Origin: Minisyncoccota bacterium
Lineage (GTDB): Bacteria > Patescibacteriota > Minisyncoccia > Phycocordibacterales > PALSA-1337
Assembly: GCA_017991475.1 (NCBI GenBank)
Contig: JAGOQK010000003.1
Coordinates: 848-64,847, forward strand
Direction: 5' to 3'
Length of the DNA: 64,000 nt
Position 1 is the first letter of the stretch. Every line of letters starts with the position of its first letter. The notes beneath the pieces are model-generated. The model saw nothing but the letters and a program-made list of their open reading frames with translations, had not been told where the DNA came from and did not search any database. Below are positions 700-62,559 of this stretch, piece by piece. The position numbers and the translations under genes were made by a program.

Positions 700-1674
700 T
701 TATGATGATGACAATGCAAGACCTGCTGCAATAGCGTATTCGAAAGATTCTGATTTCGCTATGGGCGGCACGTACAAGTCCGTATTGAAAGCGTTGTGCC
801 ACACATCGGGCAGCACGGTGTGTGCAACTGTCTCTTCACTCTGATTGCGAATGAGAGATTCGCACGCTTCAGCCTTGGATCCAACGATGACTATTTCAGA
901 TATAGCTGCATGAACATCTGCGTGCGTCATCCAGTATGCGTGCACTCGAGCAATCTCAGCGATAAGTGCCTTACCTTGATCCGACGCTACCTCATCTAGA
1001 CTGTCACTTCCCCAAGCAATCGTCGAAGTGAAACACACAACTCCCTCGGAAACTACATAGAGACCGCTTTTTTTGTGCATAACATGAACAATGAGGTGTG
1101 TGCCTTGTGAATTGACTGGTTCATATGCAGTAACGATCGCCTTTGGAGCGACTTCATAGGCAACAATCGAGAGGCCCGCCTCGCGGAGCAAGGAAACATG
1201 ATGTTCTACATAGGTACGCGGTACTACTGAAACACTTGTGCGCAATGTATCACCAGTAACAATTTTCGGCATGAGATCGAATTGGAAGATCGCATCAGCA
1301 GCTGACAACGGAACATTCTGATCAAGTTTAAATTCGATGTTCTGTGCAATGGATCGGAAATCAGCGCTTGGCACATCAGTCTGGAATAGATATGCTTTCT
1401 CCTCGGGCAATGAGACCTTCACATACGAAAGATCATTATCCTGCGCAAACTTCTTGAGTATTTCCACGAATTTCTTCTCATCCTTGATGTCTCCTCCGTC
1501 AATGAGACCGGGGGGTAAAATTTGTGTTGCGTGCTTGGATATCACGAGACGTCCACCAGAACTTCGGTATTCAATACAACGAATAGCATCATCAGAAATA
1601 TCGAGTCCTGCGTGCGGCATAACGAGGAATGTGGGAGGCGGAAAAAGCTTGAAGAGGAGCGAGCGCGTATTCAT
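700..1674 (-). CDS. pilM: Type IV pilus assembly protein PilM (actin-like ATPase fold)
   Basis: About 320 aa with a GLDIS-type N-terminal motif typical of PilM/FtsA-like proteins; followed by a PilN-like gene on the same strand. True start may be the internal Met (MPHAGLDIS) around 1620. Confidence 0.6.
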   Translation of the reverse strand: MNTRSLLFKLFPPPTFLVMPHAGLDISDDAIRCIEYRSSGGRLVISKHATQILPPGLIDGGDIKDEKKFVEILKKFAQDNDLSYVKVSLPEEKAYLFQTDVPSADFRSIAQNIEFKLDQNVPLSAADAIFQFDLMPKIVTGDTLRTSVSVVPRTYVEHHVSLLREAGLSIVAYEVAPKAIVTAYEPVNSQGTHLIVHVMHKKSGLYVVSEGVVCFTSTIAWGSDSLDEVASDQGKALIAEIARVHAYWMTHADVHAAISEIVIVGSKAEACESLIRNQSEETVAHTVLPDVWHNAFNTDLYVPPIAKSESFEYAIAAGLALSSS

Positions 1675-20393: not shown

Positions 20394-22067
20394 ATGACCA
20401 TCGTATTCGACGAAGACAAACAGAAAAGAAGGCTTGACCAGCTCCTCCACAAAGAAGAAGAGGATCTCGTGCAGATCCTTTCGGGCAAGTACGGCATCGA
20501 GTATGTAAATTTACTTGGTACCCCCGTGAACTCAGACGCCCTACGCCTCATCAAGGAAGAGGATGCTCGCAGGACACAGACCGCTGGATTTGCACTCATA
20601 GACAAGCGTATCAAGATCGCTGCACGCAACCCGCAAGACGAGAAGGTTACTACCCTACTCACCGACCTCACCGCCAAAGGATATCGACCTGAGCTTTATA
20701 TCGCTTCTACCCAAAGTCTCGAGAAAGCATGGAAGATGTACAAAGATCTTTCTTTCGCGTACGAAAGCAAGGCAGGATCACTCGAGATATCGAACGACGA
20801 AATCGCCGCTATCGTCAAAGAGGCGAAGAGTCTCCCTGTCATTGTGTCTATTTTGGAGAATACCTTGGCGGGCAAAAAGAGCTATCGCGTCTCTCGCATC
20901 CTCGAAACGGCTGTCGCGGGAGCACTCGCTATCGACGCATCCGATATTCACTTAGAGCCTGAGGAGACCTATGTCCAGCTCCGCTACCGTCTCGACGGTG
21001 TTTTGCAGGAAGTGACCCGCTTCGATACTGAGACCTACGGACTCATCCTCTCTCGCATCAAACTCATCTCGGGCATGAAACTTAATATCAAGAAGGATTC
21101 GCAGGACGGACGTTTCAGCATCCGCCTCCCTATCGGTGATATAGAGGTCCGCGTCTCGATACTGCCGGGCGCGTACAATGAATCCGTCGTGATGCGTCTC
21201 CTCAATCCGAAATCTATCGACGTACCGCTCGAATCACTCGGCATCAACGAGAAACTACTCAACATCCTCCTCAAGGAGATTGATCGTCCTGACGGTATGA
21301 TACTCACGACAGGTCCGACTGGATCAGGTAAGACGACGACACTTTATTCATTTTTGAAGAAAGTCCATAACCCCCAGATCAAGATCGTCACCATCGAGGA
21401 TCCGATCGAGTATCACCTCCCTGGCATCGTGCAAACACAGGTTAACGACAAAGGGTACAACTTCCTTGAAGGCCTCCGTGCTGCTGTCCGCCAGGACCCT
21501 GACATCATTATGGTCGGTGAAATCCGCGACAATGAGACGGCTGATATTGCAGTAAATTCCGCACTCACGGGTCACCTCGTATTTTCAACACTCCATACCA
21601 ACGATGCTGCAGGCACCTACCCCCGCCTCATCGACCTCGGTGTAAATTCGAAAGTGCTCACCTCAGCTATCCGCGTCGCCATGGCTCAGCGTCTCGTCCG
21701 TAAGCTCTGTGAATTTTGCAAGAAAGAAATGCCTGTCGACGGCGATGTGCAGCAAAATATTGAGACGACCATCCAGACTATCGAGGACAAGTCTCTCATT
21801 CCTGCAGACCGTTCCAGGATGTGGGTATCGGTCGGGTGCGAGAAGTGCAATGGCACCGGCTACAAAGGTCGCATCGGTATCTACGAGGCCATTCTCACTG
21901 ACAAGAAGATCGAGGACGCAGTGGAGATGAACCCGAGCGAGCGCGAGATTTGGGCGGCTGCCGCCGGACAAGGTATCCTGACCATGAGGCAGGATGGTAC
22001 GCTCAAAATCCTTCAGGGAATGACGTCGATGAGTGAACTCGAGCGAGTGATCGCATTGACTGATTAG
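20394..22067 (+). CDS. pilB: GspE/PilB-family secretion ATPase (type IV pilus assembly ATPase)
   Basis: N-terminal GSPII_E_N-like domain, Walker A LTTGPTGSGKTTTL, Asp/His boxes, tetracysteine motif CEFCKKE...CEKCNGTGYKGRIGIYE. Confidence 0.85.
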   Translation: MTIVFDEDKQKRRLDQLLHKEEEDLVQILSGKYGIEYVNLLGTPVNSDALRLIKEEDARRTQTAGFALIDKRIKIAARNPQDEKVTTLLTDLTAKGYRPELYIASTQSLEKAWKMYKDLSFAYESKAGSLEISNDEIAAIVKEAKSLPVIVSILENTLAGKKSYRVSRILETAVAGALAIDASDIHLEPEETYVQLRYRLDGVLQEVTRFDTETYGLILSRIKLISGMKLNIKKDSQDGRFSIRLPIGDIEVRVSILPGAYNESVVMRLLNPKSIDVPLESLGINEKLLNILLKEIDRPDGMILTTGPTGSGKTTTLYSFLKKVHNPQIKIVTIEDPIEYHLPGIVQTQVNDKGYNFLEGLRAAVRQDPDIIMVGEIRDNETADIAVNSALTGHLVFSTLHTNDAAGTYPRLIDLGVNSKVLTSAIRVAMAQRLVRKLCEFCKKEMPVDGDVQQNIETTIQTIEDKSLIPADRSRMWVSVGCEKCNGTGYKGRIGIYEAILTDKKIEDAVEMNPSEREIWAAAAGQGILTMRQDGTLKILQGMTSMSELERVIALTD

Positions 22068-37104: not shown

Positions 37105-38916
37105 TTACCCAGCCTGTTCCAGATCCTTCTTCGCCTGTTGAATACTCAAAACTTGAGCAGGATTGGTCGTGATGATCTGATCCTCGGTATATGATGCAAC
37201 GATCTTGATGGCGACGTGCTTGAGACCCACGAAGAATATACCCTCCCCCACATCTGATTCGAGCAAGAGGTACTTCTCTTCATCAGTCAGGTTAAATGTT
37301 TTCTGGATATGGTCGATGACTGTAGGAGACTGTTTGAGGAGTATTTGGATCGATGAGTTGGTTACGATAGGCAATCCATATGGTGAATTCAAGAAATCAT
37401 CCACGTCCTGGGTGATGGTAGCAAGTCCAAGGAAGTACTTGCGGCCGCGCTTGGCAAGGCTGAACAAGAATGAAGCTGTATCTTCAGACTTCATCATCCA
37501 CCACGCCTCGTCGATGACGAGCAGGCGCTTCTTGAGATTCTTGCGGATAGCATTCCAGATATAGTGAGTGACGATATACATAGCCACTGGCTTGAGTTCA
37601 TCTTCCATATCACGGAGCGAGAACACGGCAAATTTCTTGTTGATGTCGATGTTGGATGGCCTGTTGATGAAGCCTGACCATGTTCCTTTGGTGTACTTTG
37701 AGAGCCTCTGCACAAGCGATTCGCCGCCCTCCATTCCTGCAAGCACCAGCTCGAAGTCGGATAGGAGCGGTGGCTCAACGGTGCGGAAATCAGCCTCGGG
37801 CGTGATGTCTTTCAAGGCATAGGTCTCAGTGATGGCGCGATCGATGATAGCGTCTTCTTCTTGTGTGAGGCCTCCGAGCATGATGCGGAATAGTCCGACG
37901 AGGTTGATGATGTTCGAACGGAGTACATCAGCGCCAGATTCGTCCTCGCGTGGTATCGGGAGATCAAATGGGTTGATGTGGTGCTCAGAGTTGAGTGAGA
38001 TATTGAAGTACTTCCCTCCCGTAGCTTCTGCCATGTATTCGTACTCCTTCTCTGGATCGATGACGATAACATCCACATCGAACATGAGTGTTCGGAGGAT
38101 CTCAAGCTTAGTGTTGTAGGACTTTCCAGCACCGGCCACTGCGAATGTCACTGAGTTGTAGTTTTCAAGCGAGTAGCGATCAAAGAGAACAAGTGATGAG
38201 TTGTGACGATTGATACCGTAGAGGATACCCTTGTCTGAGGTGAGATCAAATGAAACGAATGGGAAAAGTGACGAGAGTGGCGAAGAGTTGAGCTTGGAGT
38301 GCACTGCGAGCTGGTCATCCGCGATAGGAATAACAGATTTGAATCCCTGCTCCTGCTGGAAGAGAGCTGGCTTCACATAGATGAGTTTGGATTCGAGGAT
38401 AGACTTGATCTCTGATTCGAGCTTATCGAGCTCGCCTTCGTTATCAGCGAATAGGGTGATATAAACACCGACGTCGAAGAGATGTTCCTGTGCCTGCATG
38501 AGTTGGTCGCGGAGCTGCTCGAGATCTTGGTATGCGGTATCGAGCGCTGGATCACGGACAAGGCCTTTCTCTTCCCTGTGTGAAATCTGACTTTGAACCT
38601 CAGCAACCTTCTTCTGGAAATGCCTCAAAATTTTTGCAGTATCGACGGGGTGTATGAATATCGAAATATTGAATATTTTGTCGAGATTGATGATCGGTGC
38701 AAACCAGCTCTCGTCAAGGAAGCGAGGGTATGAGATCACGAAAAGTGTGCGACCGACTTTCTCACCAAGATTGATCTCCTTTGGGCTTACCTTGAGTGCA
38801 GACGGCGAAATGACATCCTTGAGTTCTAGGACACCAGCCTGATAGATCTCTTCTGGCAGGATAGAGACAATAGGAGATGATTCTTTTTTGCCGAATAGTT
38901 TGTTGAGGAATGACAT
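37105..38916 (-). CDS. virB4: VirB4/TraC/CagE-family type IV secretion ATPase (Gram-positive-type, about 600 aa)
   Basis: Walker A SVTFAVAGAGKSYNTK, VIDPEKEYEYMAEATGGKYFNI, Walker B LLVIDEAWWMM, C-terminal LATITQDVDDF. Confidence 0.8.
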   Translation of the reverse strand: MSFLNKLFGKKESSPIVSILPEEIYQAGVLELKDVISPSALKVSPKEINLGEKVGRTLFVISYPRFLDESWFAPIINLDKIFNISIFIHPVDTAKILRHFQKKVAEVQSQISHREEKGLVRDPALDTAYQDLEQLRDQLMQAQEHLFDVGVYITLFADNEGELDKLESEIKSILESKLIYVKPALFQQEQGFKSVIPIADDQLAVHSKLNSSPLSSLFPFVSFDLTSDKGILYGINRHNSSLVLFDRYSLENYNSVTFAVAGAGKSYNTKLEILRTLMFDVDVIVIDPEKEYEYMAEATGGKYFNISLNSEHHINPFDLPIPREDESGADVLRSNIINLVGLFRIMLGGLTQEEDAIIDRAITETYALKDITPEADFRTVEPPLLSDFELVLAGMEGGESLVQRLSKYTKGTWSGFINRPSNIDINKKFAVFSLRDMEDELKPVAMYIVTHYIWNAIRKNLKKRLLVIDEAWWMMKSEDTASFLFSLAKRGRKYFLGLATITQDVDDFLNSPYGLPIVTNSSIQILLKQSPTVIDHIQKTFNLTDEEKYLLLESDVGEGIFFVGLKHVAIKIVASYTEDQIITTNPAQVLSIQQAKKDLEQAG

Positions 38917-40795: not shown

Positions 40796-42712
40796 TTAAG
40801 CAGGGTTATATGTTACTCCGTTTAAGGTTATACTTGCCTTGAGCCAATCACCATGGTTCTTAGGTTTACTCATCCAACCGAAGGCGCTGTGCTCACTGCC
40901 ACCAGAAGTCGTTTTCCAATCGAGAATACTTCTTGCAATAGCATCTTTTGTTTCCTTAGATACTTTACTGTCACCAATTTTCTTAAGACGATCGATGGAA
41001 AGATGTTCAAGTAGCCCTGGGTTTGCCAGCAATGATTCATCTTCGACAATACTGTCAATATCCATATCCTTTACCATCTGCTTGACGACCTCCTTGTCGC
41101 CCGTAGTCACTGCGCTTGAGAACGCATCCTTACGCGCGGTCTTGAGTGTGCTTATATCCTCAGGTTTGAAATCTTCCGATTTCTCAATAGCTTCAATGTC
41201 TGATTTTTGGAGATGCTTCATAACCTGAGGATTTTTCAAGACATCCTTCCCAAGAGCAAGCTTCTCGTCTTTGCTCATAAGTTTAATAATAGCCTTGTAT
41301 TCATCAGATGATTTAGAGTCGGAAGCGATAAGATTTTTGATTTGAGTTACCCTATCCATCTGTGTTTGCTTCTTTGCAACATCCTTCAGCTCCTTTCTGG
41401 TCTCATCATAACTTCGTGGACCCCCAAACTTACTCTTTGCAACTTGTCCTATTGTTGCAGAGCGAATATCTCTACCGAGCAGACTGTTGCCGATGCGAGT
41501 ATTGGAGAGGTATTTATCTGTTTTTGATGCCGCCATTCCAAAAGTTTTGCCACCTGCCCAACCGCTAACACCCTTCCAGATTGCTCCCGCCCCTACACCC
41601 TCTGCCCACTTTGGCATCATTGCTCCCACACTGATAGCCGCAAGAAGTGGCGCGTTGAGCATGATAATAACAATCGAGGCATTGATACCGAGGATCATGT
41701 AGTTCGCCCACCAGTACTCGCCTGCCGACTGATTCGTGGCAAATCCGGCTTGGAACAAGTTGCTTGAGGTCAGGATGCTCAACGCGAAATACATGAGCAA
41801 CAAATACACTGGCATGAAGAGGAGCTGACTCTTGTAGGTATCAGTCCATTTATTGGCGTATGTTTTTAGGTCAGGCACTGCGAATGACGCGAACCATATC
41901 GGGGAGAATCCAAGCAAGAGAAGCAACACAACGAAGCGTACGATGAAGGCAAGCGCTGCGAGGAAGAAGCTTGCTGCAGCGGTGAGCATGACGACGATGC
42001 CAAATACACCACCAAGGATAATCTGTGTGGATGCGTGAAAAGTTCCTGGTGTTCCCCCTGCCCCCGACGGATTGAGGGCCGCAGTTTTGGCATCATAGAA
42101 ATTGCTGATCTTGAGCGATTTCATGAATATGTCGGAGAGTCCGCCGTCTGCAAATCGTGTTTCGAGATTCGCACCATTCCCCACAAGCTGATCATAGTTG
42201 AGGTTACTTGCAGGCGCAATAGTGTTGTAGAGCTGCATCGATACTACATTTGAGACGTCGATACCGAGTCCTGCAGCGAAGAAACTGAAGTTTATGAGCA
42301 CTCCAGCGACTACGACCGTCTTGATGAGGTTTCCTGCGCTCGGTCCGGGGACGCCGATCGGTGCCAAGATCATCTTGAGTGCTGCGAAGACGAGGGTGAA
42401 TATGAGGAACATGCCGGATATGTCTCGTATCGATTTCCAAACCGCGTATATCGCTGGAGTACCTTCAAGGAACTCTTTGATGTTGAGTGTCAGGTTTATC
42501 GACATATTGAGCAGCGATCCGGCAAGCGCGAGGATCCAGGCGGATATGGTCAGAAGGTTGTTGACGATTTCGGCGAAGAATCCAGTGACGAAGTCATGGA
42601 AGGTATATCCGAAGAGTGGTGCGTCTGCTGCCTGCGCCACATGCCCAAATCCTCCCACGAGTATCGTGATGAGGATGAGAGTTGCTGTTATGTGAGGCAA
42701 GTAGCGTTTCAT
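40796..42712 (-). CDS. VirB6/TrbL-like polytopic inner-membrane protein with C-terminal charged cytoplasmic extension
   Basis: Signal peptide plus about 8 TM helices across the first 400 aa, then a long K/D/E-rich tail; size and topology match T4SS VirB6-like channel proteins; adjacent to PrgI and VirB4. Confidence 0.55.
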   Translation of the reverse strand: MKRYLPHITATLILITILVGGFGHVAQAADAPLFGYTFHDFVTGFFAEIVNNLLTISAWILALAGSLLNMSINLTLNIKEFLEGTPAIYAVWKSIRDISGMFLIFTLVFAALKMILAPIGVPGPSAGNLIKTVVVAGVLINFSFFAAGLGIDVSNVVSMQLYNTIAPASNLNYDQLVGNGANLETRFADGGLSDIFMKSLKISNFYDAKTAALNPSGAGGTPGTFHASTQIILGGVFGIVVMLTAAASFFLAALAFIVRFVVLLLLLGFSPIWFASFAVPDLKTYANKWTDTYKSQLLFMPVYLLLMYFALSILTSSNLFQAGFATNQSAGEYWWANYMILGINASIVIIMLNAPLLAAISVGAMMPKWAEGVGAGAIWKGVSGWAGGKTFGMAASKTDKYLSNTRIGNSLLGRDIRSATIGQVAKSKFGGPRSYDETRKELKDVAKKQTQMDRVTQIKNLIASDSKSSDEYKAIIKLMSKDEKLALGKDVLKNPQVMKHLQKSDIEAIEKSEDFKPEDISTLKTARKDAFSSAVTTGDKEVVKQMVKDMDIDSIVEDESLLANPGLLEHLSIDRLKKIGDSKVSKETKDAIARSILDWKTTSGGSEHSAFGWMSKPKNHGDWLKASITLNGVTYNPA

Positions 42713-42733: not shown

Positions 42734-44344
42734 TTATCGTGAGGATGAGTTGGCAGAGCTTTTGAGCGAGCGGCAGATATTCATGTATTGTTCAGCGCTT
42801 GTGTTGAACTGAGCTGCCTTCGCCTGTGCCTCAGCGAGATCGGTTGCGCCATTATCCCTCCCCTGCTGTATTCCCGGCAGGTTGGAAGCGATGAATTCCT
42901 GAAGCTGGTTCGATGCTTCTTGGGCGCTCTGCGCGTCCGAGATATTCTGGGCAGATCGGATGCGAGATCCGATCAGGCTGATAGTTGTATTGGCAGCATC
43001 GCGCTTGGTGCTGTATACCAGCGCAGCGGGCGCGACTTGGTTGATGAGGATCACCTGAATTGCATCGGCGTTACGCTGGGCTTCGCTTATCGCCGAAGAT
43101 CGTGTTCCTGTGACGGTGATATCCTGGAAACACCCTTGTGCGATAGAGAAATTGCTGCGGGCTGTGTCGAACGCGCTGACTGCTTGCTGATAAGTAGCAG
43201 CGACTGATTGGGCCTCGCTCAGGTAAGTAGCATAGCTCGACTGGACGTTCTGCGCAGAGTTCGAGTATGCACCCGCTCCTCTTGACTGCGCATTGAGCTG
43301 ATCAATATATGACTGTGTCTGCCCTCCTGTTCTTCGGGTGGTTCCTCCGAGACCCTGTGTGAAGACTTGCGATATGAGCTGCGCGAACAGGGCGCTCGAG
43401 ATCTCGTTGATAGAGTCTGCGAGGTTGAGTTGGTCGACACTCGAACCCAAACTCTTATTGAGACCTGCACCAATGACTGAACCAGGAGTCTGCACTGAAC
43501 AAGTTTTGTATTCCATGTATCCCGTTTCCTCGTCTCTGACCGCTTTGTATTTCGATCCATTCGCGGAGGTTACGCTGCCGGTATTGTTGAGCTGTACGAG
43601 ATCTCTCTGATCGAGGCCGAGACTTGCTCCACCTGTTCCATTGGCGTCGACTACTGCGGTAGTACAGTTTTCCCACGACAAGAATCCTTGCCCCCTATTG
43701 AGATCATTGTTAACTTTTTGTTCCTTTCCGAATATCTGTGCTTCGAGATCACTCTTGGCTTGAAGGTATGATCCGTATGGATTGTTCTGCGGTTCGCTGG
43801 TCATAGCTATGAATGCTGGCCACCCTCCTTGTGAAAAGTCGCCCGAGGTGAATCCCTCGATGCTGTAGCCGTTGATGCTCGCATTCTGCGCGTTGCCGAT
43901 GATTGTTTCGAGTGTACAGCGGTACCGTTCGCTCATAGAGCTCGTTTGGCCGAGGGCAAGGGAGAGTCTAAGGTCGATATTCCAGGGCGAACAGAGATTT
44001 TGAAGCGGGCCCACATTTGCGATGAAGTTGCCCGTGATCTCATCACCAAGGTCGAGGAAGAATGCCTCCGGGTTGTCGATGAATGCAGGACTTCCCTCGA
44101 ATCCCGTGTTGATCCAGTTGACGATGCTCGTTGTGAGTTGCTGGAGAGTCATTTTAGCGACATTCCATGCGAGCGAGTTGAGCACGAAGTCCTTGGTTTG
44201 CTGCTGGATGCTATGCCAGTTGAAAAGTGTGTCTATCGGCACCGCCCCAACAGCATGGGCTCTCGACGGCGCAAGAGTCGCCCCGGAAATAGCGAAGATG
44301 CCAACAATGAGTGCGAGAGTGGTTTTTGAAATTCGAGTATTCAT
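42734..44344 (-). CDS. Large secreted hypothetical protein (signal peptide, Gln/Ser/Ala-rich C-terminal half)
   Basis: Signal peptide MNTRISKTTLALIVGIFAISGATLAPSRAHA; no known domain recognised. Confidence 0.5.
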   Translation of the reverse strand: MNTRISKTTLALIVGIFAISGATLAPSRAHAVGAVPIDTLFNWHSIQQQTKDFVLNSLAWNVAKMTLQQLTTSIVNWINTGFEGSPAFIDNPEAFFLDLGDEITGNFIANVGPLQNLCSPWNIDLRLSLALGQTSSMSERYRCTLETIIGNAQNASINGYSIEGFTSGDFSQGGWPAFIAMTSEPQNNPYGSYLQAKSDLEAQIFGKEQKVNNDLNRGQGFLSWENCTTAVVDANGTGGASLGLDQRDLVQLNNTGSVTSANGSKYKAVRDEETGYMEYKTCSVQTPGSVIGAGLNKSLGSSVDQLNLADSINEISSALFAQLISQVFTQGLGGTTRRTGGQTQSYIDQLNAQSRGAGAYSNSAQNVQSSYATYLSEAQSVAATYQQAVSAFDTARSNFSIAQGCFQDITVTGTRSSAISEAQRNADAIQVILINQVAPAALVYSTKRDAANTTISLIGSRIRSAQNISDAQSAQEASNQLQEFIASNLPGIQQGRDNGATDLAEAQAKAAQFNTSAEQYMNICRSLKSSANSSSR

Positions 44345-52631: not shown

Positions 52632-54725
52632 TTACCGTATTTGTGCCTGTCTTTCAAGGCGTGTTAGTACCTCAATAAGAGTAGCTTCATCGCTCGCCAG
52701 AGCAAGATGAGTATTGTCTATAAATGAATAGAGGAATAGAATGGTGCCGTTTTCAATACGAAATGCCCGTACGTCCTTGTTCTTGATGATACGATCTTCG
52801 AATGTGCCACGCAGCGTAAAATATGGTCGAAGCGGTGCTACAACCTCAACGATGGTAGATGAAGCGGTCGATGTTGCACCAGAAGGTGTTGTGGTTGAGT
52901 TGAGTGTGATGGTGGTTGTCGACGATGGTACAAGTGATGGCAGGAGTGAATCGAGATTAATGGTTGGACTTGAGGTAGTCGCCACGGTAGCTACGCGCGT
53001 ATTGGCAATGCCAGTAGAATCAGATGGATATATGAACTGTTTAAGGTCATCAGCTATAGTTGCTTCCCACTGAAGCATTCCTGCAAAAGCATTCTGGAAG
53101 AAATTGGTAGTGACTATAGCGAATACCCCCTTTTCTTGTGCGGAATTTGTGTATACGCCGAGCATCCAATCAGCGGTAATCGTACGATTCAATATGTCAG
53201 GCACCGAAATGTCCAACCCTGAAATTGCTTCGGGAGCGCCTATCTGCGTGAATGTTGCAGTGTTTGAGGATGCTGTCTTACGTGCAAGAATAATCTCTTT
53301 GATCGTACCAGGTGTTTGCGCTTTCGCTACCTCTGCCTGGATACGTGAAAGTAATGTGGCAGGAAGTTGATTGTCGATAGGGATCACTGCATAGCTATCC
53401 GCGCGTACAATCCCTGGTCTACCCTGTTGTTGGACTGGTGTATTGGATATGCTGGTTGCCAAAGGACTCTTGCTATAAAGATAGTATCCCGCGAACACTC
53501 CTCCCCCGAGGAGTATGATAATCAGAAGTGTCATAACGATCTTCAGTAGGGTACGAGAATCTTTCTTGGGTCCAGAATCGTCTGATATTCGCTCCTCACC
53601 CTGCACCTTCTTCGTTTCTGCGATTGCGATAGATGCAGTCGATATTCTGCGGTGCGACATTGCTTCAGCAACATCTCCTTCGTAAGTACGCATCGGCTTG
53701 AAAGGCCCGTTTTGATTCTGAAATGGTTTTGGAGCATCAGGTTTGTCACCAGGGAGTACAGAACCGACAGCGTCTTGTAGACTTGTTGGTTTCGGTTGGA
53801 CGACAGGGTCAGCAGTATAGTCTGACAATCGAGCTCCTATAACCTTTGATGGAGGATTGAAAGGAGTGGTGCGGGGTTTTGCAACAGATGATGGTATGTT
53901 GACAGGAGGAGGTGTGCCGAGCGATGTGGCCGATGTTGTTGTAGGGGGCACAGAAGGGGTGGGATTGGAAGTCACTGTCGGTGTTGCAAATGGTGTTGCC
54001 TGAAGGCTTCCAATGTTCTTGTCGAGCAAATTTTCTTTGATGGTTGGCGGAGCAGCTTGTGTTTGGCTATGAACTTTCCTGAGTATTGCTTGGAGTGCCG
54101 CTGCAGAAGCAGGACTTTCAGGAACTTTCTGAGTTGAAGGAATTGCTGGTTGTACAGGCAGCTTTGGTGTCGAAGATGCTTCCGTGACGAATTTTGTTGG
54201 CTGCTGTGAAGTGCCTGAGGGTTTGTATGATGAGGGTATTGATTGTGCTGAAGTGGTGGTGGGTGGTGGGGTTTGCACAGAAGCGGTAGACGCAGGGGCC
54301 TGTGTCGGTGCGTGTGGCACCTGCGAGTACACCTTCACTGCTGGTGCCTGCATCGCAGGATCTATCGGGGGGTGAGGTATCGGTTTTGGAGTTGATGATA
54401 CAGGTGGTGTAGGAATTGGTTCAAGTTTGTTGATTGGTGCGCGAGTCGGTGTCGGAGTTTGAATAGGGCGCGGCACAGCTACGGGAGTGCCCGTTTTCAT
54501 GCTGTTCATAATTGCGCCTGGATTCCTTAACGCTTCGGCAATCTCGAGGTTGACCTTGTGAGTGACTGGTCCATCGAGGTCACTTACTGGCTTGATATCT
54601 CCATCAGTGAAATCATAGACACGGTCGCTGACGGTGTCCTGTTCCTCGGTATCATTGGGTGCAGGCGTAGTATTAGGCTCGACAGGAATGGGTTGTGACT
54701 TCGGTGTGAGAAGATCGTCGTTCAT
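52632..54725 (-). CDS. Bitopic hypothetical protein: long Pro/Thr/Ser-rich cytoplasmic N-terminal region, one TM, about 290-aa extracytoplasmic C-terminal domain
   Basis: Composition and single TM (LLKIVMTLLIIILLGGGVFAGYYLY) seen in translation. Confidence 0.45.
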   Translation of the reverse strand: MNDDLLTPKSQPIPVEPNTTPAPNDTEEQDTVSDRVYDFTDGDIKPVSDLDGPVTHKVNLEIAEALRNPGAIMNSMKTGTPVAVPRPIQTPTPTRAPINKLEPIPTPPVSSTPKPIPHPPIDPAMQAPAVKVYSQVPHAPTQAPASTASVQTPPPTTTSAQSIPSSYKPSGTSQQPTKFVTEASSTPKLPVQPAIPSTQKVPESPASAAALQAILRKVHSQTQAAPPTIKENLLDKNIGSLQATPFATPTVTSNPTPSVPPTTTSATSLGTPPPVNIPSSVAKPRTTPFNPPSKVIGARLSDYTADPVVQPKPTSLQDAVGSVLPGDKPDAPKPFQNQNGPFKPMRTYEGDVAEAMSHRRISTASIAIAETKKVQGEERISDDSGPKKDSRTLLKIVMTLLIIILLGGGVFAGYYLYSKSPLATSISNTPVQQQGRPGIVRADSYAVIPIDNQLPATLLSRIQAEVAKAQTPGTIKEIILARKTASSNTATFTQIGAPEAISGLDISVPDILNRTITADWMLGVYTNSAQEKGVFAIVTTNFFQNAFAGMLQWEATIADDLKQFIYPSDSTGIANTRVATVATTSSPTINLDSLLPSLVPSSTTTITLNSTTTPSGATSTASSTIVEVVAPLRPYFTLRGTFEDRIIKNKDVRAFRIENGTILFLYSFIDNTHLALASDEATLIEVLTRLERQAQIR

Positions 54726-61583: not shown

Positions 61584-61610
61584 TGTGGTGAGTTATGAAA
61601 CAATAAAAAT

Positions 61611-61634
61611 CGGCACCCCATCTCTGAGGTGCCG
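61611..61634 (+). terminator. Stem-loop CGGCACC-CCATCTCTGA-GGTGCCG after the recombinase gene
   Basis: 7-bp GC-rich stem about 28 nt after the stop codon; no strong T-run, so weak. Confidence 0.4.
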
Positions 61635-61738
61635 AAGTGGGCGCTGCTGCCCTGGCCTCGGTACTTTATTGCTTAGCTTTGAGGGGCTTTTTCATACCGA
61701 TAAAATAGTAGCATTTTGTCACTAAGAGAGTAAAGACC

Positions 61739-62314
61739 TTAGGCGCGAGCAGTCCTTAACAATTGCGACACATCCCACGATGGATTGTTCATGATACTCC
61801 TATAGAACCAAGGTGCCAGAAGTGCAAAGAATAGATTGCCGGCGAGATGGCGCAGAGTGAATGGTATCTGACCGACAGCAGCTCCCATGAGTGATTGCTC
61901 GAACAAGAGCGGACCCATGATAACTCCGGTCACGAGATCAAAGAACAATGTCCCTACGATACTCGCCACAACGAAGTTTCTTGTCGTCGCAGAACGATGT
62001 CGCAGGAAGTATCCGCCCGCTATGCCGACAATTCCATACGTGAGCGCGGTGAGGAGTGTCCATGAACCAACTTTGCCCATGAGGGCATCGAGGAGGATCA
62101 TGCTCAGTGCTCCATATACTCCCCCGACGAGTGGTCCGTACGCTTTGCCTCCTGCAAACTCAGTCGCCATGAGCGGTGAGATATTGGAGAGGCCTACGAG
62201 CGGTGTTACGAGGCGGAATACGAGCGTGAATACGAAGCCGGCGAGATATTTCACTGCGCCGTCGAACGAATGGATGATGTTTTTCATAATGGTGCGGATT
62301 GTGATAATCCACAC
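61739..62314 (-). CDS. ECF-transporter S component-like membrane protein (RibU-like by context)
   Basis: 191 aa, about 5-6 TM, no partner ATPase genes adjacent (a common arrangement for ECF S components); preceded by an FMN-riboswitch-like leader. Confidence 0.45.
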   Translation of the reverse strand: MWIITIRTIMKNIIHSFDGAVKYLAGFVFTLVFRLVTPLVGLSNISPLMATEFAGGKAYGPLVGGVYGALSMILLDALMGKVGSWTLLTALTYGIVGIAGGYFLRHRSATTRNFVVASIVGTLFFDLVTGVIMGPLLFEQSLMGAAVGQIPFTLRHLAGNLFFALLAPWFYRSIMNNPSWDVSQLLRTARA

Positions 62315-62339
62315 AGCGTGCCTTTTGAGGTTTCAGATA

Positions 62340-62495
62340 GATGCTGGTGGCATCATCTGGCCTTACGCGGGCGATCCGATTCCTGCTAATGAATCGGGGT
62401 GCATGAGATCGGACTCGCTCTATTCCCCTACCCGATGGCAGGTTCATTTCGCTTACCGTTGCGCGACAGTGGGGAGTTTCACCCCGTTCATCATG
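62340..62495 (-). promoter_or_regulatory. Candidate FMN (RFN-element) riboswitch in the leader of the ECF S-component gene
   Basis: Minus-strand transcript contains GGGGTGAAACTCCCCAC...CGGTAAGCG...GCCCGCGTAAGGCCAGATGATGCC, close to the RFN core GGGGCGAAATTCCCCACCGGCGGTA...GCCCGCG...GTCCGGATGG. Confidence 0.4.
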
Positions 62496-62559
62496 CACGC
62501 TGTATGTTGAGTCAAGTGTAACATAGGCAAACTTTATTAAGAAAGTATATAATACCCTC

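Follow-up and report, generated by a model that had tools for sequence, protein, structure and literature searches.

The minus-strand leader of a small membrane-protein gene in the Minisyncoccota contig JAGOQK010000003.1 raises the question of which vitamin it senses. The original prediction, made on the 64,000-nt stretch analysed here (the window), saw in positions 62340-62495 a flavin mononucleotide (FMN) riboswitch in front of a gene for RibU, the riboflavin S-component of energy-coupling factor (ECF) transporters, and took the pair as a sign of riboflavin salvage in a reduced genome. The general idea of a vitamin-type riboswitch preceding an ECF-S-component-like membrane protein is retained here, whereas the FMN and RibU specifics are not. 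The leader is a riboswitch of the cobalamin class, namely of the compact adenosylcobalamin (AdoCbl)-II or class-II type (RF01689, clan CL00101), and not of the FMN class. This riboswitch (62508-62288, minus strand) very probably controls a monocistronic gene for a 182-aa protein with the S-component fold, which would be a corrinoid importer repressed by vitamin B12. The functional call for this reduced genome of the Candidate Phyla Radiation (CPR; Paceibacterota) is corrected accordingly: riboflavin salvage is unsupported, and the reading that has support is B12/corrinoid salvage.

That the flagged element stands out beyond chance was confirmed. The leader is conserved in orthologues, its helices covary and its fold is better than those of all 200 shuffled sequences (z = -3.7). 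The strings on which the prediction had been based are all present on the minus strand (GGGGTGAAACTCCCCAC at 62485-62469, CGGTAAGCG at 62458-62450, GCCCGCG at 62372-62366 and GGCCAGATGATGCC at 62362-62349). The true element exceeds the flagged span, since the transcript leader extends from ~62508 to 62288 (~220 nt), with the aptamer occupying 62498-62399.

The class of the RNA was assigned through its relatives. The window copy itself fails the gathering cut-off of RF01689 and the cobalamin clan, and the best match in a permissive Rfam scan of the leader, weak as it was, fell within this clan (AdoCbl, RF01482; 20.2 bits, E 0.21, cut-off 50). The thiamine pyrophosphate (TPP) and tetrahydrofolate (THF) riboswitches, which had been named as alternatives, gave no match at E <= 10 in the same scan. 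When 34 species-level genome loci encoding the transporter were compared, 11 had the leader in front of the orthologous gene (nhmmer E values from 4e-23 to 1e-4; the covariance model R1 described below agrees). Five orthologous leaders pass the RF01689 cut-off of 36.5 bits (L006 with 37.3, L017 with 37.5, L018 with 43.8, L024 with 43.7 and L025 with 37.0), and all five are devoid of the segment between ACGGUA and AGUCCG, while none of the eight insert-bearing orthologous leaders reaches this cut-off. Inserts of 10-40 nt at the P6 position occur in 68 of 110 non-redundant relatives, so the insert of the window copy is a normal variable region; the same type of insert with a covarying hairpin is present in L058, L157 and L159. 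The profile match of the window copy is split (30.9 + 3.8 bits) and becomes contiguous, with 43.7 bits, once 62416-62453 are removed in silico. Many CPR copies are missed by the Rfam cobalamin models because of this variable P6 insert.

The covariance model R1, which was built from 13 Rfam-accepted AdoCbl-II sequences with the window's own sequence excluded, found a single significant site in the 64-kb window (62432-62509, minus strand; 38.4 bits, E ~5.5e-9). By the Rfam alignment of L006, the consensus architecture of RF01689 transfers directly onto the window: CUGUCGCGCAACGGU ... AGUCCGAUC aligns to model positions 41-70 via L006 and also aligns to R1. P5/L5, P6 and the junction strand (the B12-box region, with AGYCCG invariant among the relatives) follow each other in the consensus order and are closed by P1. 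The T-loop hairpin (GGUGAAAnUCC) with its covarying stem follows a purine-rich junction, though this junction reads GAAC in the window. The T-loop stem is paired in 97.7% of cells across 110 sequences, with 96 double-change cells, a value matched in 0 of 500 shuffles and lost in the slid controls, which collapse. In P1, double changes within the clade affect three of the six counted pairs, one change being unique to the window. The aptamer architecture and its homology to the Rfam-accepted AdoCbl-II sequences are established.

The likeness to the RFN core that gave rise to the FMN assignment is real, and it is due to a T-loop hairpin together with an ACGGUA...AGUCCG module common to FMN and cobalamin riboswitches; in the FMN riboswitch, the corresponding parts are the GGGUGAAAUUCCC-type T-loop hairpin and the ACGGUA...AGUCCGGAU module next to P1. 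The likeness ends there. RF00050 scored 11.8 bits (cut-off 66.2), and half of the six-helix junction is missing, with P3, P4 and P5 (70 consensus positions) replaced by 5 nt, whereas relatives of the leader pass the cobalamin cut-offs.

The genes found downstream of the RNA core point in the same direction as these scores. The invariant core TCCNNCRCTGTCGCGCAACGGT was scanned through a metagenome collection, giving at least 120 stretches. Among the matches listed, the downstream genes encode MetE (Meth_synt_1/2), CobT (DBI_PRT), a CbiA-domain protein of the CobQ type, three Peripla_BP_2 proteins (BtuF-like), NrdD and large subunits of class I-type ribonucleotide reductases (RNR) with ATP cones, and these core instances match RF01689 or RF00174 at gathering. 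Such a gene set is a classic cobalamin-riboswitch regulon. No rib gene was found downstream of the core among the 131 listed instances, so the gene associations speak for B12 and not for riboflavin. Upstream of the transporter family the core was found in 25 instances in addition to the window (again among the matches listed). On the low-GC CPR-like contigs L060, L142 and similar ones (L035, L082, L113, L130), a GUGAAG-type aptamer lies upstream of NrdD. This position implies that B12 represses an RNR which does not depend on it, and that related organisms therefore have a B12-dependent alternative.

The 191-aa open reading frame (ORF) reported downstream of the leader exists (GTG at 62314). 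Its start is, however, most likely the ATG at 62287, giving 182 aa, since nearly all homologues (120 listed) have this length and in the orthologous leaders the frame opened by the GTG is broken or shifted. The SD-like AAAGG with the GUG at 62314 was also considered as a true start or as a conserved upstream ORF and was rejected, as neither frame nor length is conserved in the orthologues and the genome hardly uses Shine-Dalgarno (SD) sequences. With profile hidden Markov models, the protein passed PF07155 weakly (34.7; cut-off 26.7) and stayed below the cut-offs of DUF6580 (26.2; 27) and ECF_trnsprt (22.9; 30.7). The RibU equivalog model of NCBIfam gave 14.9 against 99. The AlphaFold2 (AF2) model (predicted local distance difference test, pLDDT, 88) has the six-transmembrane-helix S-component fold and its top structural matches are all ECF S-components, FolT, PanT, BioY and ThiT fitting as well as RibU. 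A search of the family profile against all PDB chains gave no match at E <= 10. The substrate cannot be read from the S-component fold alone. Taken with the RNA and the regulon, these results make an FMN riboswitch controlling a RibU riboflavin S-component barely conceivable.

The transporter family is well conserved in Paceibacterota/CPR, and an identical protein is encoded in a 'Candidatus Pacebacteria' metagenome-assembled genome. The gene lies between a divergent Ser_hydrolase gene and a convergent gene for a XerC/D-like recombinase. The strong terminator after the coding sequence makes it a monocistronic unit. Upstream, a TGnTAnAcT box lies at the same distance from CAUACAG in the orthologous leaders. 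This conserved box, 8-10 nt upstream, would place the transcription start at the P0 5' strand; a generic promoter scan did not flag the extended -10 box at 62515..62523. P0 is a clade-specific long-range helix in which the 5' end of the transcript pairs with a stretch that lies shortly before the start region. In 14 full-length clade leaders, P0 is paired in 97.9% of cells; in two sequences a C-G pair has become U-A by a double change, and the slid controls of P0 collapse. For P0 and P1 together, 97.3% of cells are paired and four pairs change on both sides, as against 8-69% paired in slid controls. After P1, the leader contains the variable hairpin A, the conserved element GCCCGCG, the variable hairpin B, the P0 3' strand, hairpin C and the AUG, in this order. 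Hairpin C is kept in the clade with compensatory changes (e.g. GGAUU/AAUCC to GAAUU/AAUUC in L017) and ends 1-5 nt before the AUG.

How the cobalamin riboswitch would act on the gene can be approached through the kissing loop. Where cobalamin riboswitches have been characterised, an L5-L13 kissing loop is stabilised by the ligand; unpaired L13 nucleotides are always present in it, and the AdoCbl-variant family has two (PMC5028336). In the present family, CGC-GCA of L5 is complementary to (U)GC[CC]GCG apart from two C residues, which would be bulged (CGC[CC]GCG in the window). Of 103 instances, 37 have the motif GC[CU][CU]GCG after the aptamer; the upstream control gave 3 of 103 and shuffles gave ~5. 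By analogy, we infer a kissing pairing of L5 with GCCCGCG in the window as well. The deeper-branching members of the protein family have stem and U-run terminators after GCCCGCG, their platform being an antiterminator/terminator pair. When L13 of L080, L092 and L102 was blocked as a mimic of kissing, the predicted fold shifted from an antiterminator using GCCCG or UAAGGCA to the terminator with its U run. According to this modelling, the deeper-branching terminator platforms are OFF switches.

No terminator was found in the leader in the window's clade, and SD sequences are rare, with three weak matches in 36 long window ORFs (e.g. those starting at 20394+, 54725-, 1674-, 49247-, 18266- and 15170-). 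In at least a dozen window genes, a TAnnnT box precedes the ATG by 6-8 nt, a pattern suggestive of frequent leaderless mRNAs in this CPR organism. The near absence of SD motifs and the -10-like boxes near start codons indicate that translation is largely SD-independent. We propose that bound cobalamin would stabilise the kissing of L5 (CGCGCA) with the downstream GCCCGCG, the L13 equivalent with two bulged C residues, and that this kissing would repress the transporter gene as an OFF switch. Since there is no terminator, SD sites are rare and a conserved hairpin abuts the AUG, repression in the terminator-free clade would most likely act on SD-independent initiation or on mRNA stability. The transporter would import cobalamin or some other corrinoid for whose synthesis the reduced CPR genome does not provide. 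Two other switches were tried for this clade and rejected. P0 and the start-proximal hairpin coexist in the minimum-free-energy (MFE) fold and constrained ensembles show no change in the accessibility of the start region or in the advantage of the hairpin, so that the two cannot be taken as a demonstrated ligand-controlled switch, and an L13:GGGUA 'anti-kissing-loop' helix, present in most clade members, is absent from L021 and L139 and hence not general.

Several findings weigh against a B12-repressed corrinoid importer and are considered together here. At gathering thresholds, Rfam detected three tRNAs only in the 64-kb window and not the leader. In L156, the closest relative (74% identical protein), the riboswitch leader is wholly absent. 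The junction before the T-loop reads GAAC in one of 110 sequences, that of the window, and GAAG in ~105 of them; because of this unique change in a conserved junction, ligand binding by the window copy is not guaranteed. L5 and L13 are invariant in the data set, L5 being fixed by the search pattern, and the kissing loop is thus argued for by enrichment and analogy and not by covariation. In addition, the L13 of the window sits between two hairpins and not in a hairpin loop. In nearest-neighbour ensembles with P1 and the kissing loop either locked or free, the accessibility of the start codon was unchanged and the advantage of hairpin C differed by 0-0.8 kcal/mol only, and so these models leave the control mechanism in the window's clade unexplained. 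Housekeeping genes make up the 20 largest genes of the window, and neither a B12-dependent enzyme nor an ECF A/T module is among them; near the transporter gene and among the neighbours, no ECF module was found either. Finally, the import of cobalamin or a corrinoid by the protein is deduced from the riboswitch class alone.

Some of these points would also fit a relic, i.e. a decaying or non-functional cobalamin riboswitch no longer responsive to its ligand. The GAAG-to-GAAC change is accompanied by a T-loop stem one nucleotide shorter on each side than in the relatives, and a U-to-C change beside L13 removes one possible kissing-loop pair. Loss of the element is frequent, as it is gone in L156 and only degraded remnants of the leader are left in L004, L022 and L023. 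However, the variant flanking L13 is common to the sisters L058 and L159, P1 is perfectly paired over 8 bp with a lineage-specific compensatory change (U-A to C-G), all 12 bp of P0 are standard pairs, the T-loop stem has four G-C pairs, and the core and L13 are intact. The second assembly, L155, has identical bases at the odd junction. The lineage-specific compensation along with intact P1, P0 and core argues for continued selection on the structure; we consider the copy functional and a relic unlikely.

The unusual parts of the leader could also belong to a variant of the cobalamin fold with another ligand or with an ON response, the cargo of the transporter being not a complete corrinoid but, e.g., a lower-ligand base or a precursor. 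In the clade, the junction reads GAUGAAG/GGUGAAG instead of GGGAAG and the closing helix is single and uninterrupted; L13 is presented between two hairpins, P0 is an unusual helix, and the modelling yields no OFF logic for the window's clade. An activating corrinoid riboswitch has been reported (PMC10327014). Nevertheless, aptamers of the same GUGAAG type precede NrdD-type genes and, in front of the same protein family, terminator-type OFF platforms, and the L5/P6 core is identical to that before MetE and CobT. A ligand or a response of this different kind is accordingly quite improbable, and the AdoCbl-II-type riboswitch with an OFF response to B12 is preferred.

The structural archetype of the AdoCbl-II or AdoCbl-variant riboswitch (RF01689) is env8HyCbl. 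The window leader resembles RF01689 in its compact aptamer with the T-loop hairpin, a short P5 with L5, P6 (CGG/CCG), the AGUCCGA junction and a closing helix, and its orthologues pass the cut-off of this family; a downstream element could also pair with L5, with two nucleotides left unpaired. It differs in its 38-nt P6 insert, with which it scores below the cut-off, and in its closing helix, which is single and uninterrupted, whereas in the RF01689 consensus an internal loop separates an outer from an inner helix. At the junction, the window reads GAUGAAC and RF01689 reads GGGAAA. While L13 of AdoCbl-II lies in a hairpin loop holding the ribosome binding site, its equivalent in the window lies between two hairpins in a multiloop closed by P0, and the bulged nucleotides would be CC instead of purines. 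The classical cobalamin (RF00174) and AdoCbl (RF01482) riboswitches belong to the same clan and share the T-loop/P6 module, and the core motif occurs in RF00174-matching sequences; the window leader, unlike class I cobalamin riboswitches, is without the large P6 peripheral extension.

Among the transporters, BtuM is the solitary S-component-like B12 transporter of proteobacteria (PDB 6FFV / 8OVV). Its Cys80 is essential (PMC6072759). The window family has no sequence relationship to BtuM and no invariant cysteine among its 34 invariant columns, and its structure is nearer to FolT and RibU-type S-components. ECF-CbrT is the cobalamin ECF transporter of Lactobacillus (PDB 6FNP). Neither to it and the group II S-components of the RibU / FolT type nor to any other solved S-component was sequence similarity detectable. 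It is possible, and we put it forward tentatively, that the DUF6580-border S-component family of CPR is a new corrinoid uptake system, perhaps ECF-free like BtuM, unrelated in sequence to BtuM and CbrT and without a cysteine ligand. Such a system would be controlled by a class-II cobalamin riboswitch with L13 in a P0-closed multi-helix junction, and this platform would work in a near-SD-free, largely leaderless translation by a mechanism beyond secondary-structure switching. In the literature that was searched, nothing was found on DUF6580, on cobalamin riboswitches, ECF or B12 in Patescibacteria, or on leaderless or SD usage in Parcubacteria.

The arrangement of a riboswitch before a transporter gene is of an ordinary kind, and its copy in this genome is missed by standard annotation. 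It provides a functional prediction for an uncharacterised membrane-protein family, at the border of DUF6580 and PF07155, that is widespread in CPR. If this family is confirmed to import corrinoids, it would help to explain how symbiont-like CPR bacteria acquire B12. The terminator-free platform in an SD-poor organism poses a small question on the control of translation by a riboswitch where no ribosome binding site is present. The coordinates of the features are collected in Table 1.

Table 1 Features of the riboswitch leader and the transporter gene in the window
Feature	Position	Strand	Basis or remark
Extended -10 box, promoter-like TGTTACACT	62515..62523	-	Inferred transcription start ~62507-62509
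P0 5' strand CAUACAGCGU(GC)	62495..62506 (CAUACAGCGU = 62506-62497)	-	5' end of transcript; pairs with 62310-62321
Cobalamin-class (AdoCbl-II-like) aptamer, P1 5' to P1 3' strand	62399..62498	-	R1, weak RF01482 match, orthologues passing RF01689
P1 5' strand GUGCAUGA	62491..62498	-	Perfect 8-bp pairing with UCAUGCAC (62399-62406)
Purine-rich junction UGAAC	62486..62490	-	Family consensus GAAG; C unique to this copy
T-loop hairpin (P4 of cobalamin riboswitches) GGGG-UGAAACU-CCCC	62471..62485	-	Strong stem covariation
P5/L5 and P6 5' strand CUGUCGCGCAACGGU	62455..62469	-	Invariant in all relatives; mapped to RF01689 via L006
L5 core CGCGCA	62460-62465	-	Within CUGUCGCGCAACGGU
Variable P6-loop insert, 38 nt	62416..62453	-	Hairpin CCUGCC/GGUAGG flanked by GA-rich internal loop
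P6 3' strand and junction AGUCCGAUC (B12-box-like)	62407..62415	-	Aligns to AGUCcGAG of RF01689
Hairpin A (CCGAUUC...GAAUCGG)	62376..62397	-	Variable, after P1; different sequence in every clade member
L13-like element GCCCGCG	62366..62372	-	Proposed kissing partner of L5, 2-nt CC bulge
Hairpin B (CAGAUGAUGC...GCAUC-U-AUCUG)	62334..62359	-	MFE fold; clade members with differing sequences
P0 3' strand (GC)ACGCUGUGUG	62310..62321 (ACGCUGUGUG = 62319-62310)	-	Partner of P0 5' strand
Hairpin C (GUGUGGAUU-AUCAC-AAUCCGCAC)	62292..62314	-	MFE fold; ends 4 nt before AUG
Coding sequence, 182 aa, ECF-S-component-fold membrane protein (DUF6580 / PF07155 border)	61739..62287	-	Pfam, homologues, structure model
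Intrinsic terminator	61610..61635	-	11-bp stem, then U run

Some minor observations were made on the P6 insert, on the orthologous loci and on the rest of the window. In the window and in L058, L157/L158 and L159/L160, the covarying hairpin of the P6 insert is enclosed by a conserved GA-rich internal loop (GCGAAAUGAa ... GGAAUaGAGC), which may be a k-turn or loop-E-like module. At L156:2700-3010, synteny is kept (transporter, XerD-like, rpsO and NYN genes) together with the same extended -10 box, and the ~220-nt leader is cleanly missing. In an otherwise intact riboswitch-gene unit at L036:604-817 (minus strand), the transporter starts with ATT in place of ATG; this could reflect a pseudogene, a non-canonical start or a sequencing error. 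Pfam gave no match for the large window ORFs 52632-54725, 40796-42712 and 42734-44344. Other window genes encode a TraG-like P-loop protein (37105-38916, minus strand), a T2SSE-type ATPase (20394-22067, plus strand) and a PilM-like protein (700-1674, minus strand), a set that looks like type IV pilus or secretion machinery. A group I intron match (Rfam 61.4 bits) lies beside a tRNA gene at L025:3586-3792, and in both L024 (1-56) and L025 the riboswitch starts ~10 nt past the 3' end of a tRNA gene.
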